This document shows, piece after piece, positions 4,388-53,104 of a stretch of DNA of 64,000 nucleotides. Within the stretch, counting starts at the first letter, position 1, and each line of letters starts with the position of its first letter. The notes below the pieces were generated by a model. The model did no database searches. It saw only the letters and a program-made list of their open reading frames with translations, and was not told the DNA's origin. Source of the DNA: Candidatus Woesearchaeota archaeon (GTDB lineage Archaea > Nanobdellota > Nanobdellia > Pacearchaeales > GW2011-AR1); NCBI GenBank assembly GCA_964410025.1, contig CAYPFA010000003.1, positions 85,259 through 149,258 on the forward strand. The letters run 5' to 3'. The position numbers and the translations under genes are program-made.

Positions 4388-5761
4388 ATGAAAAAGAGCA
4401 TTTTATTATTACTGGTATTGTTCATTGCAAGTTTTGCATATGCACTTGAAGTAAAACAGGATTCTTTAGATGTTGCAATTATTCCAGAATTTAATCAACC
4501 AGCAAGAATAGGTCTTTCTATAACTGGTGCTCAACCTGGAAACTATAATATATACACTTTAACTGCAGTTAAAATTTTACCTTCCGATTCTTTTTATCTT
4601 AATAGCGGAACAAATCAAATGACCGTTGATGTTTATCCGACTTCTGAATTAGTTGCTTACGGTCCAACAGCTTATGCATTTTCTTTTAATTTAAGAGGAA
4701 CAGATACTGCAACAACAGACGAAGGAAGAATGACCGTTCGTGTCGTCGGTTTAAGTGATGCATTTTCACTTTCTTCAGATTATAATAATCCAGACTCGGA
4801 CAAGGTTTCTTTTTATATAAAAAATAGAGAAACAATAGATCTTTCAAAAATTCACGCAAAATTCACTTCCATTTTCTTTGACGTAGAACAAACATTTGAT
4901 ATTAAAGCAAATGAAAAAAAAGAATTTAGCATTTCGGTAGACAAAGAAAAACTTAAAAAAATTGAAGCAGGTTCTTATTTATTAAAAGCAGAAATACAAA
5001 CCGATAGAGGAGTTAAAACTCTTGAAGGAAGAATTCTTCTTGGCGAAAAAAAGGGAGTTGTAACAAAACAAGAATCAAGAGGATTTTTTATAACAACAAA
5101 TGATTTAACAAAAACAAACAACGGCAACGTTGTTGAACAAGTTTCTATTACGGTTACAAAAAATATTTTTAACAGATTATTTACTTCTTTTAGTATTCAA
5201 CCAGAGACGGTAAATAGAGATGGGTTTAGAGTTACCTACGTTTGGAATCAAAAACTAATGCCAGCAGATTCTTTTAAAATAACAACAAGAACAAATTACC
5301 TATTCCCTCTTTTAATTATTCTTGCTATCGCTTTGCTTGTAATAGGATTTAAGAGATATACAGAAACAAAATTAGAAATTGAAAAATCCGTTGTTCCAGT
5401 AAAAACAAAGAATGGACAATTTGCATTAAAAATAAAATTACACTTAAGAGCAAAGAAATCTGCAAAGAATGTTTCCGTAGTTGATAGAATACCAGGAATA
5501 GTTCAAATATATGAAAAGTTTGGTTCAAATATTAAACCATCAAGAATAGACGTTAAAAACAGAAGAATCCAATGGGACTTTGGCGATTTATCTGCTGGCG
5601 AAGAAAGAATTTTTAGCTACATGGTTTATTCAACCGTTGGCGTTGTTGGAAAGTTTTCCCTACCGCAAACACTTGCAGTATTCGAGAAAGATGGACAAAT
5701 ACATGAAGTAGAATCAAACGAAGTTTACTTCTTAGCCGAGCAAAGAGCTCCTGAGCTTTAA
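4388..5761 (+). CDS. secreted, C-terminally membrane-anchored surface protein
   Basis: ATG at 4388 gives signal peptide MKKSILLLLVLFIASFAYA. One TM segment (LFPLLIILAIALLVIGF) lies near residue 310. ORF track starts at 4307. Confidence 0.6.
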   Translation: MKKSILLLLVLFIASFAYALEVKQDSLDVAIIPEFNQPARIGLSITGAQPGNYNIYTLTAVKILPSDSFYLNSGTNQMTVDVYPTSELVAYGPTAYAFSFNLRGTDTATTDEGRMTVRVVGLSDAFSLSSDYNNPDSDKVSFYIKNRETIDLSKIHAKFTSIFFDVEQTFDIKANEKKEFSISVDKEKLKKIEAGSYLLKAEIQTDRGVKTLEGRILLGEKKGVVTKQESRGFFITTNDLTKTNNGNVVEQVSITVTKNIFNRLFTSFSIQPETVNRDGFRVTYVWNQKLMPADSFKITTRTNYLFPLLIILAIALLVIGFKRYTETKLEIEKSVVPVKTKNGQFALKIKLHLRAKKSAKNVSVVDRIPGIVQIYEKFGSNIKPSRIDVKNRRIQWDFGDLSAGEERIFSYMVYSTVGVVGKFSLPQTLAVFEKDGQIHEVESNEVYFLAEQRAPEL

Positions 5762-6167: not shown

Positions 6168-7088
6168 ATGGACCTTAATCATTTCATAGAAGCGCAGCAG
6201 CTCACGCCAGATTTACTATTCTCATTATTTCAAGAGGCAGATGATATCCGATGTGATAGAAAAAAATACTCTTCTAGCCTTCAGGGAAAGATTCTAGCAA
6301 CACTTTTCTACGAACCCAGCACAAGAACTCGACTAAGCTTCGAATCAGCCATATTGCGTCTTGGTGGCAATCTGATAAGTACAGAAAATGCAAAAGAATT
6401 CTCATCCGCAATTAAAGGCGAAAGCATAGAAGATACAGTTAGAGTGGTTGGAAGCTATGCAGATTTTGTCGTAATTAGACATTATGAGGAAGGTACTTCA
6501 AAAAAAGCTAGCGAAGTTTCTAGGGCACACATTATAAATGCGGGAGATGGCAAGGGTCAACATCCGACACAAGCATTACTAGATCTATACACAATCTATC
6601 GTGAAACCGAAAAAATAGAAGGACTTAAAATTGCCATGGTGGGTGATTTAGCATCGGGAAGAACAGCTAGAAGTTTGTGCTATCTTCTTGGAAAATTTAA
6701 AAATAATGAACTTACATTTGTTTCGCCAGAAAATTTGAGAATGCAGAATGATATTAAGGAATATCTTGCAAGACATAATGTTCGCTTTAGAGAAGATGAT
6801 AATCTCAATAACGTTTTACAAAATTCCGATATAATTTACATGACTCGAATTCAGAAGGAAAGAATTTCTCCAGAAGCTTATGAAAAAGCAAAGGGAAGAT
6901 TTGTAATTAACGAAGAAAATCTGCAACTAGTAATGCCCAACGCAAGAATTCTTCATCCGCTTCCGCACGTAGAAGAAATTTCACTTCCTCTTTCCGTAGA
7001 ACAAAACGACAAAAGAGTGGCTTATTTTCGTCAATCAGAAAACGGACTTTATATTAGAATGGCTTTACTTAAACACATGAGTTCGTAA
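6168..7088 (+). CDS. pyrB: aspartate carbamoyltransferase catalytic subunit
   Basis: STRTR, HPTQ and HPLP motifs; ~306 aa. ATG at 6168 follows the TTG at 6165. Confidence 0.9.
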   Translation: MDLNHFIEAQQLTPDLLFSLFQEADDIRCDRKKYSSSLQGKILATLFYEPSTRTRLSFESAILRLGGNLISTENAKEFSSAIKGESIEDTVRVVGSYADFVVIRHYEEGTSKKASEVSRAHIINAGDGKGQHPTQALLDLYTIYRETEKIEGLKIAMVGDLASGRTARSLCYLLGKFKNNELTFVSPENLRMQNDIKEYLARHNVRFREDDNLNNVLQNSDIIYMTRIQKERISPEAYEKAKGRFVINEENLQLVMPNARILHPLPHVEEISLPLSVEQNDKRVAYFRQSENGLYIRMALLKHMSS

Positions 7089-7119
7089 GCTTTTTAAGCA
7101 CACTTTCCTTCCTATAGTT

Positions 7120-7407
7120 ATGAATAAGTCTTTGAAAAACTCACAAAATCAAGATAAAAAACTTTGGTTTAAAGCTAAATATTATGGCTGGGGATGGTAT
7201 CCTTGCTGCTGGCGTGGAGGTTTGGTTTTACTTTTATTTATTCTTTTGTTTATACCAATACTTAAATTCCTAATTAATGCAACAACAACTCTAGAGATCG
7301 TAAGTGGTATTATGGCTGAATTAATTTTATTATTAATACTACTTATTGTTTGTTATAAAAAAGGCGAAAAACCCGGATGGCGATGGGGTTGTTCTAAGAA
7401 TCAATAA
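7120..7407 (+). CDS. hypothetical membrane protein
   Basis: 95-aa ORF with two hydrophobic segments. Confidence 0.5.
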   Translation: MNKSLKNSQNQDKKLWFKAKYYGWGWYPCCWRGGLVLLLFILLFIPILKFLINATTTLEIVSGIMAELILLLILLIVCYKKGEKPGWRWGCSKNQ

Positions 7408-7453
7408 TTATCTCTTTCAAAACGCTTTTAAACACGCAATTTCTTGATTGAAC

Positions 7454-7609
7454 ATGATAAAAAAACGAACTTGTCCTGATTGTAAAAAAGAATTTGATTT
7501 CGATACACTAGCTCATTTTAAAAAAAGATATTGCCCAGCATGTTCAAAAGAAAGAAAGAAAGCATACGAAAGCATTCATGAAATTTCTATCGAAGATTGT
7601 GACGACTAA
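7454..7609 (+). CDS. small zinc-ribbon protein (51 aa)
   Basis: Read by eye, below the ORF-track cutoff: MIKKRTCPDCKKEF..YCPACSKERKK.. carries two CxxC pairs. Confidence 0.35.
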   Translation: MIKKRTCPDCKKEFDFDTLAHFKKRYCPACSKERKKAYESIHEISIEDCDD

Positions 7610-7688
7610 TTTTTAATTTTTTTTATTTCAAGAATTATTTTTTCGAGCATTCATGCATTAATTGAAACACTAAATCTACCCATCTAAA

Positions 7689-7832
7689 TTAATATCTTCT
7701 CTGGCTATTCGAGCTGGAGCTAGAAGGTTGGCTTTCGCCCTGTGTCTGTTGTTTCATCTCTGCTTTCATTCTTTTGAATTCTGCTAATCTTCGGTCGTAA
7801 TCCGGATCAACAAAATCTGATGCTCTTACCAT
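7689..7832 (-). CDS. hypothetical small protein
   Basis: ORF 7689-7880. First ATG at 7832 (MVRASDFVDPDY..). Ser-rich tail. Confidence 0.3.
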   Translation of the reverse strand: MVRASDFVDPDYDRRLAEFKRMKAEMKQQTQGESQPSSSSSNSQRRY

Positions 7833-7937
7833 AAAATAATTTGTAATGTCCTGCTTAAAAAGGTTTCTAAGAAATCGCAACTACTTATTAGTTATTATAA
7901 TTTATTTTAGCTAATGACTTTTTAAAATTATAAAGAA

Positions 7938-8411
7938 TTACTTTTCTGCTTCTTCTTCGTTCTCTTCTTCCTCTTCGCCTTCTTCAACCATCTCAAGAGA
8001 ATTTAAGATTTCTAAAATTTGATCTAATTTTTTATTCATTTGTTGAAATTGTTCTACTGAAATAGCTGGAGCTGATGAAGCACTAGTTGCTTCTGGCCCT
8101 CTATAATTATCTCTTCCGCCACCTGCACCTGCGCCAAAACATTCACTGCAATAAACTGGTTTATCACCTGTTGGTTTAAAAGGAACTTGACAATTTTTTC
8201 CACACTTAGCACAAACTGCATCACATTTAGGCATATCTCTTCGATCTCTTCCACCGCCGAATCCGCCTCTGCTTCCGCCGAAACTTCTTCCGCCACCGCT
8301 AGTAAATTTTCTACCTCGTCCGCCAAAATTACTTTCAGAATCTCTTCCGCCAAATCTAGGCCGGCTATCTCTATCTCCTCTGTCTCGTTCAAATGATCTA
8401 AAGTCTCCCAT
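7938..8411 (-). CDS. RGG-rich protein with CxxC-x17-CxxC zinc-ribbon and acidic tail (putative nucleic-acid binding)
   Basis: N-terminal RGG/GGR repeats, CAKCGKNCQVPFKPTGDKPVYCSEC (CxxC, 17 residues, CxxC), and a C-terminal EEEEENEEE tail. Confidence 0.7.
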   Translation of the reverse strand: MGDFRSFERDRGDRDSRPRFGGRDSESNFGGRGRKFTSGGGRSFGGSRGGFGGGRDRRDMPKCDAVCAKCGKNCQVPFKPTGDKPVYCSECFGAGAGGGRDNYRGPEATSASSAPAISVEQFQQMNKKLDQILEILNSLEMVEEGEEEEENEEEAEK

Positions 8412-8494
8412 AAAAATATAGAGAAATGAGGCATTATAAAGCTATCTTATTGTAAAAAATGAGAAATTTAAATTCCTAAAGAATAAAAATCTTA

Positions 8495-8646
8495 TCCCCT
8501 CACCAGGAGTTGAACCGGGGTTTCGCGGGTCCTGCCGACATCATATTCTAACGAATACAATCTAATCACATTTCATCCTTTGCCGTTGGGCAATGTCCAT
8601 GCTAGTAAACTACAGCCACGCGCACTAACCGTTGTGCTATGAGGGG
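8495..8646 (-). tRNA. tRNA-Tyr (anticodon GUA) with 80-nt intron at 37/38
   Basis: Exon 1 is 8646-8610: CCCCTCA TA GCAC AACGGTTA GTGC G CGTGG CTGTAG. The intron is 8609-8530. Exon 2 is 8529-8495: C CCGCG AAAC CCCGG TTCAACT CCTGG TGAGGGG A. C1-G72 is typical of archaeal tRNA-Tyr. One C-U mismatch in the T stem. Confidence 0.85.
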
Positions 8647-8724
8647 ATAAATTAAGTGGGGAAAATTGGTTTTTAAATACTTCGAATTGCACAAATTTAT
8701 AAAACAAAATATACTCCCTATTTC

Positions 8725-35828: not shown

Positions 35829-37907
35829 TTACATTCTTTGAACATAACCCTTTCGCGGTCTAAATAAATCTCCAGCTCTAACTAATTTATCCATCGCCTC
35901 TTCAATTTCATCTGGCTTAAGTTTTCCTTCTGACGCTTTCTCAACTTCTTCCATCGGAATTAATTTACCAAGTCTTACTTCCAACTGCTCAAGAATTTCT
36001 TTTAGTGTAAATATTTTATTTCTCTTTGATGCCGGATTACCACCAATTTTATCAATATCAAAACTTTTAGATTCTTCATCGTAACCAACTTGCATCATAT
36101 AATATTTCATCAAATCAATTGCGCTCTGAGCATCTTCTTCAGTCACAAATTTTGCCAGTCTAGCCTTTGCAGTTGCCTCGGCTAATCTAACTAATGCCTC
36201 CAGCTGTCTTGCCGAAATTGGTATTGGTCTAGTTTCGCCACCACCAGCAATCGGCTGATTTCTTAATCCTACGTAAAATGTTTTGATTACTTTTATAGCC
36301 TCATCAGATAATGCAGGATGACATTTTTGTTTCGCATAAGAAATATATTTTCTAAGTAAATCTTTTTCTATAATATCTGTTCCACCATGTGATTTATGCT
36401 GATGTTCCTGCAACACGTGAGCCGCAATACTTTCATCTCTAATTCTGTTCGGGAGATCTCTTAGGATAAATAAAACGTCGAATCTGTTTAACAAAGAGGG
36501 AGCCAAATTAACCTGCTTAGCAATCATTTCATGTGGATCAAATCTACCAAATTTTGGATTCGCTGCTGCAAGAACTGAAGTCTGCGCCCTCAAAGTTGCC
36601 TGAACATTTGCTTTAGAAATTGTAACCGTCTGCTGCTCCATGGCTTCATGCATCGTCGATCTATCATTCTCATCCATTTTTTCTAACTCGTCAATACAAA
36701 CTAAACCCTTATTAGACAAAACCATCGCTCCCGCTTCTAAAGCCCAACCTCTTAAAAATTCATCCTTAACCACAGTAGCTGTAAGACCAGCACCCGATGC
36801 AGATTTACCGGAAACATATCTTCCCTTTGGAGCAATGCCAGAAATAAATTTCAGCATAACGGATTTCGCTACACCCGGATCACCCACAAGTAAAATATGC
36901 ATATCTCCTCTAGTCAATGTTCCATCGCTCTTTTTCTTTTGAACTCCACCGAATAATTGTAATGCCAAAGCTTGTTTAATTTCAGGATAACCCCAAACCG
37001 AAGGAGCAATACTTGCGACAAGTTTTTTATAAATATCCGGACTAGCAGCAAGTTCCTTTATTTCTTGCTCCTCATCTTCATTAATCTTAATATCTTCATA
37101 ACTTTCTTCTAGGGGAATTACATTGTTCGCCTCAATCGCTAAATCAAAACGCGTTAAAATTCCACCAGTTTTTGCCGGCAAAGGAACTTCTTTCAAAACT
37201 CCAATAACTAAAACTTTACTACCAGGAGTTGTTCTCTCTTCCATTTTCGGATCTACTAAATCTTCCTTAAGAAAAACTTGCATTCGTTTCGGCTGTTCAC
37301 CGCCAGAAAGCGCATCAGGAGATTCTTCAATAACAATTCTTTGGGCGTCAACCATTTCTTTGCTTAATTCCTTAAATCCACCACGTCTTCCACAAGAACA
37401 TCTTGAAGGCTCTCTAAATTTTTCGTCAATCTGTAAAACGCTTAAAATAGTTCCACAAGCAGGACATTCAAAACGCGCATTTGTAACTCGCGGTCTAACC
37501 TCGGAAGCCTGTCTGACAATTCCCTCAATAGAAATCATCGTATTAAGGTTTTTTGCTCTAATATTTCTAATCTTTACGTCTTGCGTTTTTGATAAACTAA
37601 TCAGTCTAACTCTAGCATTTGAAATTAAACCACCCTCATGTAAGGCTAGCTCTAAAACCTGTATAGCTTCATCTGGGGAAATAATTAATCTTTCCGCGAG
37701 TTCAGGTGACTGCTCAGAAAGTTCGTCAAAATTAACCTTAACAATTTTTTCAGAAGATTTCGCGCTTTCACCAAGTTGCTTTCTTTGAGTATTGAAGAAA
37801 CTCTTTGCCTCATTGATTAAATCCTCTTGATTAACCTTTCCAGGAGCAGAAGGCATATTATCTGAATCATCTTCCGCTATCTCCTCATTTCCAAAGTCCT
37901 CTTCCAT
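35829..37907 (-). CDS. mcm: MCM replicative helicase
   Basis: The protein has a zinc motif CPACG..CSCG and Walker A GDPGVAKS. It also has Walker B CIDELEKM and an arginine-finger region LLNRFDVLF. 692 aa. Confidence 0.97.
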   Translation of the reverse strand: MEEDFGNEEIAEDDSDNMPSAPGKVNQEDLINEAKSFFNTQRKQLGESAKSSEKIVKVNFDELSEQSPELAERLIISPDEAIQVLELALHEGGLISNARVRLISLSKTQDVKIRNIRAKNLNTMISIEGIVRQASEVRPRVTNARFECPACGTILSVLQIDEKFREPSRCSCGRRGGFKELSKEMVDAQRIVIEESPDALSGGEQPKRMQVFLKEDLVDPKMEERTTPGSKVLVIGVLKEVPLPAKTGGILTRFDLAIEANNVIPLEESYEDIKINEDEEQEIKELAASPDIYKKLVASIAPSVWGYPEIKQALALQLFGGVQKKKSDGTLTRGDMHILLVGDPGVAKSVMLKFISGIAPKGRYVSGKSASGAGLTATVVKDEFLRGWALEAGAMVLSNKGLVCIDELEKMDENDRSTMHEAMEQQTVTISKANVQATLRAQTSVLAAANPKFGRFDPHEMIAKQVNLAPSLLNRFDVLFILRDLPNRIRDESIAAHVLQEHQHKSHGGTDIIEKDLLRKYISYAKQKCHPALSDEAIKVIKTFYVGLRNQPIAGGGETRPIPISARQLEALVRLAEATAKARLAKFVTEEDAQSAIDLMKYYMMQVGYDEESKSFDIDKIGGNPASKRNKIFTLKEILEQLEVRLGKLIPMEEVEKASEGKLKPDEIEEAMDKLVRAGDLFRPRKGYVQRM

Positions 37908-44650: not shown

Positions 44651-45277
44651 ATGTTTGAAATAACTATAGTGATAGATATTTTTGTGTATACTTTTATAGG
44701 AGTTTTCCTAGTAAATCTTATTCCCGTGTTCGGACCACCAACCTGGATGGTTCTTTCCTACATAGGGCTATTTTATGAAATACCATCAATACCTCTTTTT
44801 GTTCTGACTGCGCTTTTGGCAGCAGTTTGTGGAAGATTTTTACTTATACTTTTCTCTAAGAATATAATACGAAATAATTTATTTCCAAATAAGTACAAAA
44901 AAAATATGGACTATTTGCGAAATCGTTTTGAGAATAAACCATACTGGATATCCTTAATATTTTTTATTGATGCAGTCACGCCGCTTCCTTCAGATCAACT
45001 TTTTATTGCCTACGGATTAACAGGACAGAAAGCCCGATATGCACTTATTCCATTTGCATTAGGAAGATCCTTTACATACACTTTCTGGGCGATTACATCG
45101 ATAACTATTGCAAAACAAGCAACACTAAAAGCGCTCACAAACTTTTCATTTTTTAGCACCACATTCATCCTGATGGAAATTTTGCTTTGTTTTCTTTTAT
45201 ATTTTTATGTAAAGATTGACTGGCAATATCTAATTGTGAATCATCGTTTGAGATTAATTAATCACAATAAAAATTAG
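44651..45277 (+). CDS. DedA/SNARE-associated (VTT-domain) membrane protein
   Basis: 208 aa, multi-TM, with a GPPTW..L motif typical of DedA. Its stop codon overlaps the left att repeat by 2 nt. Confidence 0.7.
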   Translation: MFEITIVIDIFVYTFIGVFLVNLIPVFGPPTWMVLSYIGLFYEIPSIPLFVLTALLAAVCGRFLLILFSKNIIRNNLFPNKYKKNMDYLRNRFENKPYWISLIFFIDAVTPLPSDQLFIAYGLTGQKARYALIPFALGRSFTYTFWAITSITIAKQATLKALTNFSFFSTTFILMEILLCFLLYFYVKIDWQYLIVNHRLRLINHNKN

Positions 45278-45291
45278 AACGCCCAAACCGG
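45276..45291. repeat. att site, distal copy (orphan tRNA-Asp 3' end)
   Basis: agaacgcccaaaccgg is identical to 52975-52990. It contains the complement of CCGGTTTGGGCG, the tRNA 3' end. Confidence 0.8.
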
Positions 45292-45366: not shown

Positions 45367-46434
45367 TCACTTGTCTAATATCTTTTTTAGATTATCTAAA
45401 AACTCCTTTGTGTCTGCAAAATAATTGGGGTAAGCTTTCCTTAAATCGTTTGACGCGTCAACGCCAACAAGAACCACATCATATTCTTTTTTCCCTTGGT
45501 TTCTTTTTTCAGCTTTGGCGTAGTCTTCTACAGCCTTTTCTTCTTGTCCATATTGATAACCAGTAATATTTAACTTTTCTTCAAGGATATTCAGTTCTAA
45601 TAAAAAAAGTTTTAAATTTGGTGTCTCCTTAGATGCTCTTTCAAAAACCTGAACTGCCTTTGTCCAGCCATCCATAACTTTGATTACGTTTAATTCTTTC
45701 GCTATACGTTTAATTTCCAAATATAGCTCTTGCGGATCTGTAGGTGTATCGGGAATAAGAGGAGTGTTTTCCATAATAGCGAATGCAGAACTAACTAATT
45801 TGAAAAAATCCATCCATTCTTTTTTACCCTCATTAGACTTAATAGCCTGTCCTGTAAAAAAATCGGCAGTTTCTATAGCTGTAGCCCACAGATGCTGTAA
45901 CTTTGATCTTATCTGTACTTCTACGAGCAACCCATTGTATTCCTTTTTTCCTTCCTTATCACTCTTATATCTATAAATCAAATGAATACTTCTATAGCCA
46001 TCCTTCTTAGGGTAGGTTATATAGTCCTTCTCGTTTACTTTTTTATGTTTTAAGTCTCCACGGATGTACCCTTCTTTGTATAATTTTTGAGCCAGCTCTA
46101 CATTTGATGTAACGACCCTACATCCTCCAATATCTTGCATTTGAGATAATTTCATAGTTGGCTCTTGACCACCATATTTTCTTCCAAGTTTTTTTAATAT
46201 AGAAGGCAGTCTTTTTAGTCTTTGAACAGCCAATGAGTCCTTATCTATTTTTTCAGAAACATCTTTTAATCTTTTTTTAAATATATGCATAGGATATCGG
46301 TGAATTGCCCTCCAATTGTCCAAAATAGTTAAGGCTTTATCCAGCTCCTCGGAGGTGCTTTTTTCATCCAACAAGATATCTCCTGCCCAGTCTACTCTTG
46401 ACTTACTATATCCTTTTGGCTTTGCCCATACCAT
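45367..46434 (-). CDS. RelA/SpoT-domain nucleotide pyrophosphokinase (small alarmone synthetase / toxSAS-like) with extended C-terminal domain
   Basis: Synthetase motifs are RLKRLPSILKKL (RxKxxxSxxxK), DIGGCRVV, GYRSIHLIY and EVQIRSKLQHLWA. A ~150-aa helical C-terminal extension follows. Confidence 0.85.
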   Translation of the reverse strand: MVWAKPKGYSKSRVDWAGDILLDEKSTSEELDKALTILDNWRAIHRYPMHIFKKRLKDVSEKIDKDSLAVQRLKRLPSILKKLGRKYGGQEPTMKLSQMQDIGGCRVVTSNVELAQKLYKEGYIRGDLKHKKVNEKDYITYPKKDGYRSIHLIYRYKSDKEGKKEYNGLLVEVQIRSKLQHLWATAIETADFFTGQAIKSNEGKKEWMDFFKLVSSAFAIMENTPLIPDTPTDPQELYLEIKRIAKELNVIKVMDGWTKAVQVFERASKETPNLKLFLLELNILEEKLNITGYQYGQEEKAVEDYAKAEKRNQGKKEYDVVLVGVDASNDLRKAYPNYFADTKEFLDNLKKILDK

Positions 46435-46545
46435 AGAATATTGCGGATGAATAGATATTTAAATGTTGGTATTGCGCGGAAGTCTATCGAATATATAAAT
46501 TATAAATATAATGGTTTTACTTTTTTTGCGCGGTTATTTATCTTT

Positions 46546-47031
46546 TTATTGTTTTTTTGCGCAGTTATGTTTTACCGGCACCCTTTGCTCGTGTAAGTTT
46601 TCTTTTCTTGTAGACAATATTTCTTTTTGAGTGTTTCTGAATTCTTCCCACATTCTTTTAACGTTAGGATGCATTTTGTGATTAGAAATATACTTGCTGC
46701 TTTTTTTAATATTACATTTTAATCTGTCGATACTTCTCATTTGCGCAACCTTATCAGAAGAAATCATACCTTTCTCTTTTTTTATTGAAGTAAGTGGAAA
46801 ATCATATTTAATGAATTCTTTCCTGCTCATTGGTTTAAAGTCATAGCGAATAAATCTTTCTCTTAAATTTCGTATATATGAAACTCTACATTTGGAATTA
46901 TGATCTATTCCCAATTCTTCGACGACTTTCTTAGGTATTTGTATAGTCAGAGTAAAGTATTCCTTCTCGTTTTTTATGTGCTTTTTTCTTGAAGGGATTA
47001 CTGACTTATCCAAAACCCTTATCTTATCCAT
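46546..47031 (-). CDS. hypothetical protein with N-terminal AbrB/SpoVT-like segment (candidate antitoxin/regulator)
   Basis: 161 aa. FTLTIQIPKKVVEELGIDHNSKCRVSY resembles the swapped-hairpin DNA-binding motif. Lies directly upstream of the RelA/SpoT gene on the same strand. Confidence 0.45.
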   Translation of the reverse strand: MDKIRVLDKSVIPSRKKHIKNEKEYFTLTIQIPKKVVEELGIDHNSKCRVSYIRNLRERFIRYDFKPMSRKEFIKYDFPLTSIKKEKGMISSDKVAQMRSIDRLKCNIKKSSKYISNHKMHPNVKRMWEEFRNTQKEILSTRKENLHEQRVPVKHNCAKKQ

Positions 47032-47209: not shown

Positions 47210-47473
47210 ATGTTAAAACAAACACGGGCTCTTAAACCACGAGGCTTGTATTCCAAGTTTATAGAAAGACTTAGAGAAGCGGAGAAGTCTATTCCGCTTG
47301 GGTCTAAGAAAGATTATATTCCTTTTCCAGTTATATTTGAAAAAGTGTGTAGAAACTTTTCTCTCAAAAAAGACGATGCATTTGAAATTTTATTTATGCT
47401 GAGGGATTTCGGATTCATTGAAGTCGTTCCTTTTCACGGAATTAAATTGAAGTATGAGGTGAAAAATGTCTGA
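47210..47473 (+). CDS. hypothetical small protein (possibly wHTH)
   Basis: 87-aa ORF on the element. Confidence 0.45.
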   Translation: MLKQTRALKPRGLYSKFIERLREAEKSIPLGSKKDYIPFPVIFEKVCRNFSLKKDDAFEILFMLRDFGFIEVVPFHGIKLKYEVKNV

Positions 47474-47675
47474 TAAGATTTGGGGAGTAGATATCACTTC
47501 TGATTTGCCAATCTATGAAGACGAAATAGATGCCTTCTTAGAAAGAGAGAGACGAGCCTCAGGTAAGAAGAGAAAAAAGAAGAATAAACATAACTCTTCC
47601 AACTATAATATATATTATATTTTGTATTACATTTTTAATATAATTATACTAATTAAAGGAGTATCTTTTATTTAA
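47466..47675 (+). CDS. hypothetical small protein
   Basis: 69-aa ORF overlapping the previous stop by 8 nt. Basic patch, then a hydrophobic tail. Confidence 0.3.
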   Translation: MSDKIWGVDITSDLPIYEDEIDAFLERERRASGKKRKKKNKHNSSNYNIYYILYYIFNIIILIKGVSFI

Positions 47676-47685
47676 TCTTTTCTTT

Positions 47686-47943
47686 ATGGTGTATCATCCA
47701 GACAAAATAGTTTTTAGAAAGAGCCTTTCTTTTAGATTAAAAAAAGAGCACTTCGAAGCATTGGACGAGTTATTAGAAAGACATCGAGATCAATATGACT
47801 CTTGGAGCCATATAGTGCGGTGTGCAATTATACATTTACTAAATTATGAGCGAGAGCAGGAGGAAAAACAAAATGCAAGAAATAAAAAATCTAAACATTT
47901 CGGAAAAGGACAAAATCTGTTTCGAGGAACTAAAAATTCCTAA
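47686..47943 (+). CDS. ribbon-helix-helix (CopG-like) protein
   Basis: LSFRLKKEHFEALDELLERH is a typical RHH N-terminal strand-helix. Confidence 0.5.
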   Translation: MVYHPDKIVFRKSLSFRLKKEHFEALDELLERHRDQYDSWSHIVRCAIIHLLNYEREQEEKQNARNKKSKHFGKGQNLFRGTKNS

Positions 47944-48091
47944 GACTATTGCCGAGATTGCCGTAATCTTAGATACAACGTATAATTATGCGTTTACAAA
48001 GGTGAAAGTGTGGGAAGCGAGAGGCTGGGTAAAAAGAATTCAGTCTAAACGCGCTGTTAAATACTATCTTAATGGAGACGAACTTCAATAA
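47873..48091 (+). CDS. winged-helix DNA-binding protein
   Basis: TIAEIAVILDTTYNYAFTKVKVWEARGWVKR is wHTH-like. ATG 47873 is preceded by GGAGGA; the ORF track starts at 47846. Confidence 0.5.
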   Translation: MQEIKNLNISEKDKICFEELKIPKTIAEIAVILDTTYNYAFTKVKVWEARGWVKRIQSKRAVKYYLNGDELQ

Positions 48092-48373
48092 GAATAAACC
48101 TGTCGAATAGATCTTTCCCAATGTAAGTAAGAAAAGGAAAGAAAAGGAAAGAAGCACAAAACAAAGTATAAAACGCTCACTCTGGACATTGTCAAAGTAG
48201 GCACGGGCTTCCATTTTGAAAAGTTGTCGCAATCGTATCTTGATGACACGATGATTTTTGGGAATTTTTTAAAATAAACAGCGTTTTATTAAGTATTAAA
48301 GAGCCTTATGTTTCGCGGAGTATATCTTACTGCTTAATAAAACATTTAAAAACTTGTAAATGTTAAAAAACAA

Positions 48374-49252
48374 ATGAGTAAAACGCAAGTTCTTGCATTT
48401 ATTTTAAGTATTCTTGGACTAATAATCCCAGTAGTAGGCTTAATATTCTCCGTTCCAGCGCTACTAATGAGCATTGCTCAACTAAAAAAGAATAAGAGCG
48501 GGATGATTGTCGCCACAAGAATTATTTCCATAGTTGCCATAATCGTTTCTGTGGTTGTCTTAATCTCATTTTATTTCTTCTTTTCTTATTTGCCAGAAAA
48601 ACAATTCCAAGAAACTAAGGTATCTTTAATTCTTACTCCGGAGAGTAGCTCTGCAAATATGCCGTATGATTTAGATGTTCTAATGTCAAGGTTCGCTATG
48701 TCCTCTGGAAAAGTTGAAGGAGTGATTAAAGAGAACAAAATTCTACTAAACGTAAGTTTATCTGATTTTGATAGCCAAATATATAGATACCTTATCAATA
48801 CTTCGTTCTTTGAAGCAAAAATTGGTAATGACGTTGTTTTTACGGGCGGAGAGGATATTACCTACGTGGGCACAACTGGTCAAGATGCAGGAATCTATTC
48901 CTGTGATCAATATAGTGAGGGCTATTCGTGTCAATTTAGATTTATAATCTATTTGTCTAATTCCGCGGCACAAAGGCAAGCTACGTTAACCTCTGACCTT
49001 TCTACGAATCCATCTTATGGCGGAAAATACTTAGATAAACCACTCGATTTATATGTTGATAATAATCTAGTTGATACGCTACAAATTGGCACAGATTTGA
49101 GAGGCAAGTTTGTTTCACAAATTCAAATTTCTGGTTCTGGAAATGGGCTAACAACCGAAGAGGCATACGAGAATGCAAAGATAAATATGAAAAAATTGCA
49201 GATCTCATTAAAATCAGGCAGACATCTTTCTTCTAACTATTTAGTTAATTAA
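48374..49252 (+). CDS. membrane-anchored protein with extracellular domain
   Basis: 292 aa. Two N-terminal TM helices, then a soluble domain. Confidence 0.55.
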   Translation: MSKTQVLAFILSILGLIIPVVGLIFSVPALLMSIAQLKKNKSGMIVATRIISIVAIIVSVVVLISFYFFFSYLPEKQFQETKVSLILTPESSSANMPYDLDVLMSRFAMSSGKVEGVIKENKILLNVSLSDFDSQIYRYLINTSFFEAKIGNDVVFTGGEDITYVGTTGQDAGIYSCDQYSEGYSCQFRFIIYLSNSAAQRQATLTSDLSTNPSYGGKYLDKPLDLYVDNNLVDTLQIGTDLRGKFVSQIQISGSGNGLTTEEAYENAKINMKKLQISLKSGRHLSSNYLVN

Positions 49253-49273
49253 GCACTAATCGAAACTCTCTCT

Positions 49274-50464
49274 TTATGGAGTTAGTGTTTTTATTAAGTA
49301 TGTCGCATTTTGTGAATTTGGATTATATACTACTAGTCCTCCGGTGCTCACATTACAATTCATCTGTTTATTTCTTTGATTGTAGAAAGAACAACCTGGA
49401 TAACTGCTATAGTCAGACCCTTGCATAAAATTATTGTAATCTTGCTCAGAAAGAACAAAATGAACCGTTATAGGTAAGGTGCTATTAAATTCAAGTCTAA
49501 GTTCGTTTGTCTTTGTTGTATCGGTAAATGGATAATATGCAACATATCCTGCTCGTAAAGTATCATTTGTTACTGCAGGTATAAGCGTTATTTTTTTAAT
49601 TGGAGGAATATAATATTGAGAAGAAATAATATTTTGCGGAATAACTTTTGTGCTAATGACTGTACCCAAATCATCTAAACACTGACATTCCATATCTTGG
49701 GTATTTGGATTATAGATATAAGAGAATTTTGTGGCAGCAGGTATATCTTGACAATAGCTTTCGCAAAATGAATCCATATTACTTATCTGCTGTGGGGTAA
49801 AAATATCTTCTGCGGAAGATACATTCATAGACGCAATACTGAAAATTCCCCATATCAAACTCAATGCTATGAAAATAATTATGATTGAATTGACAATACC
49901 TAATTTTGTTTTCTTAAATGTATTGGCAACTCTTTCTGAAAAATTAAAATAAAGCAACCAAAATATCGCGACAATAACATTCCTACCATCACTACTATAA
50001 ACATCACCAATTAAATAAGATGGCAAACCAAATGAAGAAATAACACTATAAATGCTGCTTGTTAATAAAAATAAATAAAATCCCTTCGCGAATCTTATAG
50101 CATTTTCAGACTCATTGAAAATACTTACTCCACAAAAAATACTCAAACCGATAACAAAGAGGTTGTATATTATAACCACTCCGCTATTATCTCCTGAAAA
50201 TAAACTAAATAATATAAACACGGGAGAAATAACTGTTAAAACAAATGCAGCAAACCAAAGCCATCCTCCGACGCCAGATTTCTTTTCGTCTTTCTTGCTC
50301 TTTTCTTCTTTTTTATCTTCGGTTTTTGTAACAGATAATCTATCGCTTATTCGTTTGGGAGAATCTTTAATCTTGCTCCAACAGTCTTTACAAAAATAGC
50401 TATCATTATCTGAGAAAGAATCCCAAAGCGAAGTTTTTTTCTTGCACCTTGAACATAAAACCAT
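49274..50464 (-). CDS. multi-pass membrane protein with N-terminal zinc ribbon and Cys-rich extracellular C-terminal domain
   Basis: The N-terminal zinc ribbon reads CSRCKK..CKDC. It is followed by ~5 TM helices and a C-terminal domain with several Cys. ATG at 50464; the ORF track starts at GTG 50473. Confidence 0.55.
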   Translation of the reverse strand: MVLCSRCKKKTSLWDSFSDNDSYFCKDCWSKIKDSPKRISDRLSVTKTEDKKEEKSKKDEKKSGVGGWLWFAAFVLTVISPVFILFSLFSGDNSGVVIIYNLFVIGLSIFCGVSIFNESENAIRFAKGFYLFLLTSSIYSVISSFGLPSYLIGDVYSSDGRNVIVAIFWLLYFNFSERVANTFKKTKLGIVNSIIIIFIALSLIWGIFSIASMNVSSAEDIFTPQQISNMDSFCESYCQDIPAATKFSYIYNPNTQDMECQCLDDLGTVISTKVIPQNIISSQYYIPPIKKITLIPAVTNDTLRAGYVAYYPFTDTTKTNELRLEFNSTLPITVHFVLSEQDYNNFMQGSDYSSYPGCSFYNQRNKQMNCNVSTGGLVVYNPNSQNATYLIKTLTP

Positions 50465-50556
50465 AGTTTTCACTATATTAGTTACTATTTAAATTATTTG
50501 ATATTATAAGCACCAGATTAAGAAACATTTTAATATCTTCTTATATACTAAATTTA

Positions 50557-51687
50557 ATGGTTCATTGTGATGAATGCGGGAAGAAAATTGAAGGATTACC
50601 CTTTCATTGTAAATATTGCAAGGAGAATTTTTGTGATATTCACAGATTACCAGAAGACCACCATTGCACCGGAATTGATAGAAGCAATATTTTTTATAAA
50701 TTAAAAAAAGAAAATATAGAAAGAACAGATTGGTCAGCAGACAATGAGGCAGAAAAAAATGTATTGCACAACAAAGAAAAACATTCTGGAAAGAAGAAGA
50801 ATAGGTTTTCAGAAATTTTGGACAAAAATCTTGATTGGTTAAACGATCGTGAGCATCATTCATATGACTGGAAGGGAAGGGCAAATTATCTTCTAACTAT
50901 TTTAGTCGTATTTGTTGTTTCTATAATTGCCTACAAGATATTTTATGATAATGCTATAAAATTGAATAGTTTTAATTTTTGGATAATCAATCTCGCAGGA
51001 GTTCTTCTTTTGATCTCTATTTTTTTTATAATTAAGTATGGATGGAAAATTATAACAGAAATCCCAAATGTAATCAAGAGGCAAAGGAATTGGTTAAGGT
51101 GGTTGATTATTATTCTAATTTTAATTGCTGTGTGGCAAGCATATGAGAATAGAGATACGCTATTCAATCCCATATTGGATTTTAAAGAAAAAACAAATTT
51201 TTCATATTTTAATCCTCTTGATATAAACTATACGAGTGCAGGAGAAAAAACAAAAGACGTCTCAGGAAGCTTGTTTGAGAATTTGAAAAATACGGTTACC
51301 GTTCCAGAAAGAGACTATGATCTCATCGAAACCCGAATTTTTGAATTGGTCAATGAGGAGAGAACAAGATATAATGCCAGACCATTAAAATTAAGCTCTA
51401 ATCTTGACAGTCTTGCAAGAAAATGGAGTGAAAAGATGATTGCAGAAAACTTTTTTGAACATAGCGGATATAATGTTGGAGAAAATATTGGAGAGGTGCC
51501 AATACATTATAATGTTGTTGGCTGCGGATCTACCTACACAAATGAAGCTATGGCACAATGTTTTGTTACTGGATGGATAGAAAGTCCCGGGCATCATCAA
51601 AATATGATTGATAAGTCATATTCAGTTACGGGAGTAGGTATTGCTTGTGATATCTCGCAGTGTAGAGCAACTCAAATGTTTAGTTAA
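50557..51687 (+). CDS. AN1-type zinc finger / 3-TM / CAP (SCP/PR-1, YkwD-like) domain fusion protein
   Basis: The N-terminus CDECGKK..FHCKYCKENFCDIHRLPEDHHC matches the AN1 pattern, and three TM segments follow. The C-terminal domain (RYNARPLKLS..LARKWSEKM..FEHSG..SPGHHQNM..VGIA) matches CAP. Confidence 0.7.
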   Translation: MVHCDECGKKIEGLPFHCKYCKENFCDIHRLPEDHHCTGIDRSNIFYKLKKENIERTDWSADNEAEKNVLHNKEKHSGKKKNRFSEILDKNLDWLNDREHHSYDWKGRANYLLTILVVFVVSIIAYKIFYDNAIKLNSFNFWIINLAGVLLLISIFFIIKYGWKIITEIPNVIKRQRNWLRWLIIILILIAVWQAYENRDTLFNPILDFKEKTNFSYFNPLDINYTSAGEKTKDVSGSLFENLKNTVTVPERDYDLIETRIFELVNEERTRYNARPLKLSSNLDSLARKWSEKMIAENFFEHSGYNVGENIGEVPIHYNVVGCGSTYTNEAMAQCFVTGWIESPGHHQNMIDKSYSVTGVGIACDISQCRATQMFS

Positions 51688-52985
51688 AACTTACGTATTG
51701 TCTTTATTTTCTTCTTAATTAACTCCAAAATTTCTGGATCTTGAAGAAGTTTATTCATTGTGTCATCCGCAACACTTTTCTGAGTTTCTGCTTCAACAAT
51801 CTTATTCGCTTCTTCTTCATTTAAACTCATTCCACACTTCTTGCAAAATATACTGGTAGACTCGTTTACTTCCTTACATCTAATACAAACAATGTTTTTC
51901 AAAACATCTTTTGGCTTCTGCTTCTTAACTTCTAATCCATTTTCTGCAAGAATAACATTATCCGTCTCCCTTCCGTTCATATGAATGTAAACTCCGCACA
52001 TCTTGGACGATTGAGCCCAACCGAGATATTGTTTCATACCTGCCTCAGGCATTACAGAAGCTAATTCAGTTGCTCTCGAATGCCTAAAAAGATGGTTGTA
52101 TATTCGTTTAGTTATTCCTGCTCTTTTGGCACTATTCTTAATTATGGAACTAAGTCTCGAATAACTTAATATATGGTCTGACTGCGTGTTATACCAAAGC
52201 GACGCTTCTCTATCTGTATTCAACGGATGCTGGTTTATCCATTCTTTTAGATATGGCATTGACTTAACCAGAAGGACTTGTCTCATCCCCGTTTTACCTT
52301 CTGGAAACATTATTCTTGCGCCATAATCTTCAAAAGAAATATTTTTAATTTTTAGACTACCAACTTCTGAAATTCTTCCTCCACTTTCTGCAAGAACAGA
52401 AACAAAACATTTGTCTCTTGTTGTTTTACAAAACTGGATTATCTTCTTAATTTCTTCTGGGGTTAGAAGCTCTTCTGGGAGTTTAGATTTATTTTGTGCA
52501 ATATTTATGTTAATCCACTTAACCCTTTCCGGAAGCGCATCGCCTCTTTCTGAGCCTTCAATAAATCGATAAAGTTTTCTAATCATTATCTTAATTCCTT
52601 TTTTTGTTTCTTCTGCAAAAGGTTCGGCATTTAACTCAGAAACAACACGCCTTAGATCTTCTTTTGTAGCCTCTTGAAAATCTTTCTTTAAATGTCTATC
52701 AAACCAAACAATATCAACTAAATATCTTCCAACTTTGGCATAACCAATATTTTCACTTAGTAAATAGTTCTTGAAAGAAATTGCTGTCTTTTTATTATTT
52801 TCAGAATAGAAATATGTTGGCTTACTTCTCTTGCTTGTTTCTTTTAGAACTTCTTCTGGATGTTCAATTCTAAAAACAATTCTTTCAAGTTGGTGTTTGT
52901 AGTTGTGTATGCTCATATCGACGATAAAATCGTCCCAGCTTATAAAGGACGACCGTCGAGCATATAACTTTTCCAGAACGCCCAA
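51684..52985 (-). CDS. int: tyrosine recombinase / integrase with C-terminal zinc ribbon
   Basis: Catalytic pattern GGRISEV (Arg), HLFRHSRAT (HxxR) and GVYIH (Tyr), plus C-terminal CIRCKE..CKKCG. The ORF reaches into the tRNA-Asp 3' end, so the true start is probably internal. Confidence 0.88.
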   Translation of the reverse strand: MGVLEKLYARRSSFISWDDFIVDMSIHNYKHQLERIVFRIEHPEEVLKETSKRSKPTYFYSENNKKTAISFKNYLLSENIGYAKVGRYLVDIVWFDRHLKKDFQEATKEDLRRVVSELNAEPFAEETKKGIKIMIRKLYRFIEGSERGDALPERVKWININIAQNKSKLPEELLTPEEIKKIIQFCKTTRDKCFVSVLAESGGRISEVGSLKIKNISFEDYGARIMFPEGKTGMRQVLLVKSMPYLKEWINQHPLNTDREASLWYNTQSDHILSYSRLSSIIKNSAKRAGITKRIYNHLFRHSRATELASVMPEAGMKQYLGWAQSSKMCGVYIHMNGRETDNVILAENGLEVKKQKPKDVLKNIVCIRCKEVNESTSIFCKKCGMSLNEEEANKIVEAETQKSVADDTMNKLLQDPEILELIKKKIKTIRKF

Positions 52986-52990
52986 ACCGG
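52975..52990. repeat. att site, tRNA-proximal copy
   Basis: agaacgcccaaaccgg overlaps tRNA-Asp positions 62-73 plus 4 nt downstream. Confidence 0.8.
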
Positions 52991-53050
52991 GAATCGCACC
53001 CGGGTCCTCGCCGCGACAGGGCGATGTACTGACTACTATACTATTTGGGC
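52979..53050 (-). tRNA. tRNA-Asp (anticodon GUC)
   Basis: GCCCAAA TA GTAT AGTAGTCA GTAC A TCGCC CTGTCGC GGCGA GGAC CCGGG TGCGATT CCCGG TTTGGGC G. All stems pair. The T-loop has G rather than U at position 55. Confidence 0.9.
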
Positions 53051-53104
53051 AGTTAGATAAAAAATCATAACAAAATTCCTTTTTAAAATTATCTTTTTGA
53101 ATTA

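Follow-up and report, generated by a model that had tools for sequence, protein, structure and literature searches.

The 64,000-nucleotide stretch analyzed here, called the window in the following, corresponds to positions 85,259 to 149,258 of contig CAYPFA010000003.1 in the genome assembly GCA_964410025.1 of a Candidatus Woesearchaeota archaeon. Its minus strand carries a gene for a 355-amino acid protein with a RelA/SpoT-type synthetase domain which sequence comparison and a structural model place in the fused CapRel family, as an archaeal representative. In this protein, an N-terminal toxic synthetase (toxSYNTH) domain and a C-terminal pseudo-zinc-finger antitoxin/sensor would be combined on one polypeptide. 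The protein belongs to a slowly evolving CapRel branch that extends throughout the DPANN archaea, and what is new about this branch is its private set of phased, operator-like boxes, which co-vary with a single residue of the encoded protein. The gene and its two predicted modules are located as follows.

45367..46434, minus strand: predicted CapRel-type fused toxin-antitoxin gene, 355 amino acids (PF04607, PDC-S33, 7ZTB/9ERV, PHROG 4773, invariance of key residues)
45835..46233, minus strand: predicted toxSYNTH core, residues ~68-200 (Pfam match to residues 71-185; strands and helices of the model; RelQ/RelP align to that half alone)
45370..45822, minus strand: predicted C-terminal antitoxin/sensor module, residues ~205-355 (AlphaFold secondary structure; full-length superposition on CapRel-SJ46; published CapRel domain description, PMC9712102)

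The Pfam search assigns residues 71-185 to the RelA_SpoT family PF04607 (E=3.5e-19) and detects no hydrolase (HD) domain in the protein; all four synthetase motifs that had been quoted in the initial annotation, which was made from the letters alone, are present. End-to-end matches were obtained with the PADLOC candidate family PDC-S33 (residues 1-353, E=2.7e-118) and with PHROG 4773 (residues 9-352, E=2.6e-97), both of them catalogue profiles without stated function that describe a defence-candidate family found in phages. The closest solved structures by sequence (phmmer, PDB) are those of CapRel-SJ46, 7ZTB and 9ERV, with E=5e-44 over residues 9-351 and a full-length identity of 30%, and the top match among 50,697 phage genomes is likewise the CapRel gene of Salmonella phage SJ46. 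RelQ and RelP, in the same PDB search, align to the catalytic core alone, over ~120 residues and with E ~1e-11, and the NCBIfam equivalog model for YjbM, NF053588, gives 59.9 bits versus a cut-off of 320. The protein thus groups with CapRel and not with the housekeeping enzymes RelQ/RelP, and the earlier reading as a relative of the toxic small alarmone synthetases (toxSAS) can be sharpened to a fused CapRel, which the initial annotation had named as one option.

The AlphaFold model of the protein, calculated from 64 homologues, has a predicted local distance difference test score (pLDDT) of 82.8 and a predicted template modelling score (pTM) of 0.79. It was proposed in the initial annotation that the C-terminal structure be compared with the CapRel pseudo-zinc-finger; in Foldseek, the model superimposes over its full length on 7ZTB, annotated as "Structure of the Salmonella tRNA pyrophosphokinase CapRel", with a template modelling (TM) score of 0.79-0.81 and ~360 columns, while RelQ/RelP structures overlap with its N-terminal half alone (TMq ~0.4, TM to target ~0.7). 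The C-terminal elements of the model are helices at 234-270, strands at 274-282 and 287-294, a helix at 298-311, a strand at 318-324, and helices at 326-334 and 342-354. They would make up two anchor helices, a beta-beta-alpha-beta unit (274-324) with the pseudo-zinc-finger topology of a three-stranded sheet with an inserted helix, and a two-helix tail; the published topology of the CapRel antitoxin/sensor agrees with this modelled module (PMC9712102). A C-terminal extension of about 150 residues is therefore present as first described, yet it is not the plain helical extension it had been taken for, because anchor helices, a beta-beta-alpha-beta unit and terminal helices are modelled in it. 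Between the terminal helices, residues 333-337 form a hinge of low pLDDT, and the motif YPNY occupies positions 335-338.

Residues of known role in CapRel-SJ46 are aligned to the following positions of the 355-amino acid protein.

R72 and R106: ATP adenine pocket (R79 and R116 in CapRel-SJ46)
Y147: G-loop (Y155 in CapRel-SJ46)
Y335 and Y338: YXXY plug (Y352 and Y355 in CapRel-SJ46, Y335-P-N-Y338 being aligned to Y352-P-N-Y355)
A334: interface (A351 in CapRel-SJ46)

In an alignment of 120 database homologues, R72, R106, Y147, Y335, and Y338 are found in 120/120 and A334 in 118/120. The residues E172 and Q174 of the ExQ catalytic strand, aligned to their SJ46 equivalents, are also retained in 120/120, so that substitutions of catalytic residues, which the initial annotation had named as a refutation, are not seen. 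It is characteristic of the tRNA-pyrophosphorylating toxSAS enzymes that a pseudo-zinc-finger with the YXXY motif blocks the ATP-donor site (PMC11782079). Since this donor-site plug is kept, tRNA rather than a nucleotide would be supported as acceptor of the enzyme. Pyrophosphorylation of the tRNA 3' CCA end, toxicity upon activation, and release by a viral trigger protein are described for bacterial CapRel/toxSAS members only (PMC9712102, PMC11782079).

Overall, it is probable that the protein is a CapRel-type tRNA pyrophosphokinase that inhibits itself within one polypeptide, which is opened by a trigger and shuts down translation, and which in this genome has been mobilized on an integrative element at a tRNA-Asp gene. 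By homology, the YPNY hinge with Y335 and Y338 would plug the ATP-donor pocket formed by R72 and R106 and thereby keep the resting enzyme closed. Binding of a trigger protein to the C-terminal module would open the enzyme, which would then transfer pyrophosphate from ATP onto the 3' CCA end of tRNAs; translation would be switched off by this modification, resulting in abortive infection or growth arrest. No separate antitoxin would be needed for this cycle, the antitoxin domain being fused to the toxin.

The second part of the main finding concerns the promoter, which was found by aligning the DNA upstream of the start codons of the homologues. In the window it is composed of the elements listed below, together with the open reading frame (ORF) into which it extends.

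46456..46463, minus strand: TATA box TTTAAATA, -29 to -22 from the ATG, present at ~-30 in nearly all archaeal-clade loci
46439..46446, minus strand: box 4, degenerate, CCGCAATA, between TATA box and ATG; many loci have a copy at -12 to -15, which changes together with the other boxes
46472..46479, minus strand: box 3, CCGCGCAA, at -45, just upstream of the transcription factor B recognition element (BRE) and the TATA box; the commonest box position
46526..46533, minus strand: box 2, CCGCGCAA, at -99
46557..46564, minus strand: box 1, CTGCGCAA, at -130, overlapping the last codons of the 161-amino acid ORF
46546..47031, minus strand: 161-amino acid orphan ORF, doubtful as a real gene and no partner of the toxin gene (no homologues, no linkage, weak coding signal)

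As the TATA box sits at -29 to -22 from the ATG, a leaderless or near-leaderless transcript is implied by the sequence. The GC-rich boxes follow the consensus ACCGCGCAAAA and occur upstream of the DPANN homologues in 2-4 copies, at ~-130, -99, and -45, and often at ~-14; no such array was seen upstream of the bacterial homologues examined. The core [CT]GCGCAA is present in 125 copies in 66 upstream windows (-160 to -1), that is 11.8 per kb, versus 103 copies in 1.29 Mb elsewhere (0.08 per kb), which amounts to an approximately 150-fold upstream enrichment; one or more core copies are present in 52 of the 66 loci. Strict box copies outside the -170 to 0 windows number 15, nine of which lie further upstream of the same gene and six scattered within unrelated ORFs, and thus no box regulon is seen in the ~1-6% of each genome that was sampled. 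Adjacent boxes are spaced by 31-33 nt in 46 cases and by 53-55 nt in 37 cases, and 85 of 111 spacings fall within 1.6 nt of a multiple of 10.5 (~30% expected). Given these spacings, the boxes lie on one face of the helix, and this helical phasing points to cooperative binding of a protein to DNA rather than to an RNA element. An RNA element upstream of the gene was considered and discarded, there being no Rfam match and the phasing favouring DNA. The RelA/SpoT gene carries its own regulatory region with it across different neighbourhoods, including onto the element in the window.

Five loci have CCGCCCAAA in place of CCGCGCAAA in every box, including the copy between TATA box and ATG, although they are not mutual closest relatives. 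Among the 355 columns of the protein a single one discriminates these loci from the others, namely residue 159.

45958-45960, minus strand: codon 159 of the 355-amino acid gene

Asp is found at this position in 47/47 GCGC loci and Asn in 5/5 GCCC genome loci. The association was used predictively in both directions. Three further proteins with N159 from the database search were located on contigs, and GCCC was found in all boxes (3/3); conversely, a scan of metagenomes with the GCCC-type promoter pattern returned nine loci, and the 7/7 readable downstream genes are homologues with Asn. The seven contribute five new proteins and one duplicate of a genome locus, bringing the distinct N159/GCCC loci to 14, and the covariation is without exception in 61 loci (47 D/GCGC and 14 N/GCCC). 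On a neighbour-joining tree calculated without column 159, the D/N state requires eight changes, and at least six in 100/100 bootstrap replicates.

Residue 159 is part of a loop rich in lysine, R155-Y-K-S-D-K-E-G-K-K164, which connects the G-loop strand to the catalytic EVQIR strand. In a docking model of FaRel2 with tRNA, a residue shortly past the G-loop tyrosine contributes to the acceptor-stem interface, and a nucleic acid-binding location of residue 159 is thus plausible. As residue 159 and the central base of the box co-vary perfectly, the data suggest that the boxes are bound by the protein whose gene they precede, which would thereby control its own promoter and read the central base pair through residue 159; an Asp-to-Asn exchange accompanied by a swap from G:C to C:G would make chemical sense for direct base readout. 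Binding to the promoter boxes would be mediated by the lysine-rich loop, and transcription would be autoregulated as in classical type II toxin-antitoxin systems. The far-reaching proposal, according to which the DPANN CapRel-type proteins are three-in-one modules that unite toxin and antitoxin/sensor with a sequence-specific repressor acting on the promoter of their own gene, the residue-159 loop reading the phased ACCGCGCAAAA operators and the module being as conserved as core genes in most DPANN lineages, is put forward tentatively, being regarded as possible though on balance doubtful.

A protein search with the 355-amino acid sequence returned 4,412 matches, including more than 120 clusters that are 66-83% identical over the full length; where the source is named, these are mostly from Nanoarchaeota, Woesearchaeota, Pacearchaeota, and Aenigmatarchaeota. 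Relatives are encoded by 159 stretches of species-representative genomes, and the number of species-level genomes with the gene, nearly all of them from DPANN archaea, is at least 150. The 80 loci retained from these 159 are nearly all of DPANN type, carrying Woese-, Pace-, Nano-, Aenigm-, Micr-, Iain-, and Nanohalo-archaeota labels at 47-83% identity; bacterial homologues (Acidobacteria, Chitinophaga, and others) are 41-47% identical. RelA/SpoT-type enzymes have long been held to be nearly absent from archaea, the superfamily survey of 2011 recording sporadic members only (PMC3153485). The initial annotation, which also considered them rare and the present copy an unusual horizontal acquisition, is not borne out for DPANN archaea: the family is a widespread, slowly evolving, mostly chromosomal solitary gene there, and the element-borne copy in the window is the exception. 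No description of a DPANN CapRel clade, of PDC-S33, or of a CapRel operator array was found in the literature search.

Outside this strain the copies have ordinary chromosomal surroundings, for example PCNA/primase genes, the L1/L10/P1 cluster, a position directly upstream of the L3-L4-L23-L2 operon, and one between NDK and SecDF. In a Pfam tally of the flanking genes at ~70 loci no recurrent partner gene appears; the neighbours are a housekeeping mix, the commonest being ribosomal protein L1, at 4 loci. The upstream neighbour lies on the same strand in 33/68 loci, and the median gap is 238 nt (~70 loci). Since there is no recurrent neighbour and both strand and gap values are those of genes without linkage, a separate cognate antitoxin gene is not indicated. 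Some homologues adjoin toxin-antitoxin pairs, that is VapBC (L005 11720-12321), HicAB together with VapBC (L097 1-1227), and MNT/HepT (L099 1-617); a minority of copies may reside in toxin-antitoxin or defence clusters, while most do not.

With regard to evolutionary rate, identity over the top 120 clusters decays from 83% to 66% for the RelA/SpoT protein and from 81-84% to 66% for the MCM protein of the window; in four syntenic genomes that have the L1 gene as divergent neighbour, pairwise identities are 76-91% for the RelA/SpoT protein and 74-80% for ribosomal protein L1. A conservation above that of core genes, suspected from a comparison with tryptophanyl-tRNA synthetase (TrpRS) in L015 (34% identity for TrpRS versus 77% for the RelA/SpoT protein), was abandoned, as the MCM and L1 controls show about equal conservation and the TrpRS pair may be paralogous.

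Homologues on viral contigs consist of one 64% match on a contig binned with giant viruses and of bacterial phage CapRels at 35-41%. The 64% homologue (L091, IMG/VR GVMAG-S-1041346-124_000001, 4425-5575) is preceded by archaeal boxes, and its contig is probably of DPANN origin and mis-binned as viral. Homologues of 53-76% identity are also found under bacterial labels (Gammaproteobacteria, Patescibacteria, bacterium; L045, L046, L047, L053, L059, L077) and under the labels Methanosarcinales/Methanoperedens (L021, L027, L038, L039, L060, L073). In most of these loci the gene is preceded by the archaeal TATA/box promoter; in L053, L059, and L073 there are boxes and no recognizable TATA box, and in L077 neither is present. 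They may represent mis-binned DPANN contigs or transfer to host organisms. In a different archaeal lineage, the thaumarchaeal Nitrososphaera provirus Pro-Nvie1 (FR725450.1, 5837-6256) encodes a protein having an N-terminal Rel/Spo-like domain with 30% identity to residues 22-184, a further RelA/SpoT protein on a mobile element of archaea.

Several of these observations weigh against the interpretation as a trigger-opened tRNA pyrophosphokinase with antiviral function, as well as against its extension to DNA binding. In bacterial CapRels the pseudo-zinc-finger is the least conserved region and is thought to be engaged in an arms race (PMC9712102). In the archaeal homologues the mean top-residue frequency (120 homologues) is 0.88 for the catalytic core, 0.79 for the pseudo-zinc-finger residues 263-325, and 0.77 for the N-terminus; the C-terminal sensor is almost as conserved as the core, and the fast-evolving sensor that is typical of, though not defining for, CapRel is absent. 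The evolutionary rate of the entire protein is as low as that of MCM or ribosomal protein L1, and most copies reside among housekeeping genes, outside defence islands. Conserved sensor, core-gene rate, and housekeeping context fit poorly with an arms-race antiviral sensor and leave room for a physiological role in growth control. Furthermore, tRNA pyrophosphorylation, toxicity, autoinhibition, and trigger are all extrapolated from proteins of ~30% identity. The boxes could be read by a separate factor, and recombination between two allelic types of long standing could maintain the linkage between residue 159 and the boxes.

In line with these reservations, the protein could be a housekeeping or physiological small alarmone synthetase, producing (p)ppGpp or (pp)pApp, or modifying tRNA at a low level, as a non-toxic growth signal, with the C-terminal domain sensing a conserved cellular ligand. 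Beyond the rate, the conserved C-terminal domain, and the housekeeping neighbours with their ribosomal protein operons, its dedicated, elaborate promoter and its presence in at least seven DPANN lineages would be explained in this way. Such a role is nevertheless considered unlikely, since the protein is much nearer to CapRel, along its full length, than to RelQ/RelP, which match the core only; since it stays far below the cut-off of the YjbM model; and since the YXXY donor-site plug, tied to tRNA-targeting toxins (PMC11782079), is kept. Also, no alarmone hydrolase partner is seen among the neighbours, the gene can ride an integrative element and in some copies adjoins VapBC, HicAB, or HEPN/MNT pairs, and the closest MCM relatives (92-94%) are without a matching close homologue of the protein in the database, the best being at 83%. 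As to the boxes, a separate DPANN transcription factor might read them, or they might act as RNA, the residue-159 association then reflecting two old allelic lineages. CapRel proteins are not known to bind DNA (PMC9712102, PMC11782079), a neighbour-joining tree of such similar sequences is noisy, so that recombination could inflate the number of switches, and other targets could have been missed at the sampled genome fraction. It is, on the other hand, the gene itself that is the sole constant companion of the boxes across dozens of neighbourhoods. Moreover, exactly one protein column tracks the box type, all 3-4 boxes of a lineage switch together, the helical phasing and the lack of an Rfam match speak for DNA and not for RNA, and the chemistry of the exchange would suit a direct base readout. 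A separate reader or an RNA element is considered improbable.

The least probable alternative, and one which can practically be set aside, is the two-gene system suggested in the initial annotation, with the upstream 161-amino acid ORF encoding an AbrB/SpoVT-type antitoxin that neutralizes and co-regulates the RelA/SpoT toxin. Both ORFs are indeed located where they had been placed, on the same strand and 111 nt apart; on inspection, the stretch IQIPKKVVEELGI superficially resembles AbrB/SpoVT/MazE motifs, and several short strands appear in the N-terminal half of the single-sequence AlphaFold model of the 161-amino acid protein, albeit at very low confidence (pLDDT 50, the N-terminal 90 residues being below 50). 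The ORF matches itself alone among 5.8 billion proteins, however, and is found by tblastn in none of the 84 other loci with the RelA/SpoT gene (0/84), so that the genetic linkage, whose lack the initial annotation had named as a refutation, is missing. Searches of Pfam (with the N-terminal fragment even at E<=10, PF04014 included), NCBIfam, PADLOC, PHROG, and PDB (phmmer) gave no match, which leaves the proposed AbrB/SpoVT resemblance without a counterpart in these collections. The codon score of 0.08/codon lies below the values of all long genes of the window (>=0.23) and also under the short-ORF median. The last codons (N-C-A-K-K-Q-stop) coincide with a conserved promoter box of the RelA/SpoT gene downstream, the one at -130, and that gene has a TATA box of its own and a fused antitoxin domain. 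The 161-amino acid ORF is unrelated to the toxin gene and no partner of it.

Comparing the fused CapRel now with the characterized systems, CapRel-SJ46 of Salmonella phage SJ46 (7ZTB, 9ERV) and CapRel-Ebc have the same length and architecture, comprising toxSYNTH, anchor helices, pseudo-zinc-finger, and terminal helix. Common to CapRel-SJ46 and the archaeal protein are also the R/R ATP pocket, the G-loop tyrosine, the EVQIR catalytic strand, and the YXXY plug, at 30% identity and a TM score of 0.8; either is encoded by a single gene, without a separate antitoxin, that can be borne by an integrating mobile element. The archaeal protein differs by its DPANN host, in which the copies are mostly chromosomal, in housekeeping context, and evolving at the rate of core genes; by its conserved sensor, which is hypervariable in bacterial CapRels (PMC9712102); and by the loop following the G-loop strand, which in the alignment is lysine-rich here and acidic in SJ46. 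A phased operator array that co-varies with residue 159 is not described in the CapRel papers cited. The bicistronic toxSAS systems (split CapRel, PhRel, and FaRel2 with antitoxins of the ATfaRel2 type that have a pseudo-zinc-finger domain, pZFD) contain the same toxic domain and follow the same logic of donor-site neutralization by YXXY/pZFD (PMC11782079), but the neutralizing domain is fused here and no neighbour gene is conserved. RelQ/RelP (YjbM/YwaC) have the synthetase fold in common with the archaeal protein and are single-domain enzymes of ~200-230 amino acids, as opposed to 355, without the C-terminal module.

In type II toxin-antitoxin operons, the antitoxin or the toxin-antitoxin complex binds to repeated operators in its own promoter. 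The DPANN genes resemble these autoregulated operons in the repeated operator-like boxes that flank or overlap the promoter and co-evolve with the encoded protein. They are different in that the 355-amino acid protein contains no recognizable ribbon-helix-helix (RHH), AbrB, or helix-turn-helix (HTH) domain and that the co-varying residue is located in a loop of the toxin domain, not in the antitoxin part.

CapRel ranks among the best understood bacterial immune proteins that sense a viral protein directly. With a large archaeal fused-CapRel branch in the DPANN group, the system would reach into a second domain of life, and there into organisms whose genomes are tiny and for which few defences are known. 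Should the protein indeed bind to its own operator, transcriptional autoregulation and sequence-specific recognition of nucleic acid would be added to the abilities of toxSAS enzymes. In case the three-in-one proposal holds true, this would be the first toxSAS domain with sequence-specific nucleic acid recognition and the first conserved RelA/SpoT-type system of archaea; the module would then control translation or dormancy of DPANN symbionts upon a conserved viral or cellular trigger, instead of being a dispensable, fast-evolving defence. A conserved sensor would point to a conserved trigger and could help to identify DPANN viruses or a signal of host dependence.

Concerning its location in the window, the RelA/SpoT gene is the outermost cargo of a 7,715-bp integrated element, at the far end from the integrase, so that the placement on a mobile element in the initial annotation is confirmed for this genome. 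The element comprises the following features.

45276..45291, no strand assigned: distal attachment-site repeat AGAACGCCCAAACCGG, left element boundary, a direct repeat matching the tRNA-Asp 3' end exactly over 16 nt
47210..51687, no strand assigned: other cargo, consisting of four small plus-strand ORFs (one weakly MarR-like), two membrane proteins, and a zf-AN1/CAP-domain protein
51684..52985, minus strand: tyrosine integrase with a C-terminal double zinc-ribbon (PF00589, E=7e-25; PHROG 1 integrase)
52975..52990, no strand assigned: proximal attachment-site repeat AGAACGCCCAAACCGG, overlapping the tRNA-Asp 3' end (k-mer scan)
52978..53051, minus strand: tRNA-Asp(GTC), the integration target (ARAGORN)

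The element is recognized by the combination of the 16-bp direct repeat, the tyrosine integrase, and the tRNA-Asp gene. Besides the features listed and the RelA/SpoT gene, it holds the 161-amino acid orphan ORF. Long tRNA-derived patterns did not match an attachment site; instead, a k-mer scan located the second copy of AGAACGCCCAAACCGG, two copies being present in 0/100 shuffles. The distal repeat lies 75 nt past the stop codon of the RelA/SpoT gene. At the other end the integrase abuts tRNA-Asp, with an 8-nt overlap between its longest ORF and the tRNA gene; the shorter form of 410 amino acids called by the Joint Genome Institute (JGI) probably has the correct start. The exact-pattern search of metagenomes revealed no empty integration site, and no relatives of the integrase were found in viral contigs (IMG/VR); a related integrase fragment is near a RelA/SpoT homologue at one locus only. 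In the closest relative by MCM (L089, 94%), synteny is rearranged, so that the site is not visible. The nearest homologue of the 355-amino acid protein is 83% identical, whereas MCM has relatives at 92-94%, and this gap would fit a scenario in which the closest relatives lack the gene and the element introduced it.

The GCCC box variant CCGCCCAAA has 8 nt in common with the attachment repeat and with the 5' acceptor strand of tRNA-Asp, CGCCCAAA; the boxes in the window are of the GCGC type, and the likeness is probably a coincidence. The boxes were also considered as mimics of a tRNA acceptor stem, GCCCAAA being the 5' strand of tRNA-Asp, and this was rejected, as this tRNA-Asp is the only one of 26 sampled tRNAs to start with GCCCAA and none starts with GCGCAAA.

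The other cargo of the element is without relatives near the loci of other homologues, except for a 292-amino acid membrane protein (48374-49252, plus strand), which matches the P1-like region of SecD in L009. The identity to the SecD homologue there (7074-8690) amounts to 43% in the periplasmic, P1-like portion, and the membrane protein looks like a truncated or diverged SecD fragment. The protein encoded at 50557-51687 (plus strand) is an odd cargo for an archaeal element, having a zf-AN1 zinc finger at its N-terminus, transmembrane segments, and a CAP/SCP domain at its C-terminus, with a match to a PHROG moron family named 'sporulation protein'. Outside the element, the MCM protein of the window (35829-37907, 692 amino acids) is intein-free, and its close relatives P0139, P0142, P0182, P0213, and P0219 are ~1,130 amino acids long and contain intein/LAGLIDADG domains.

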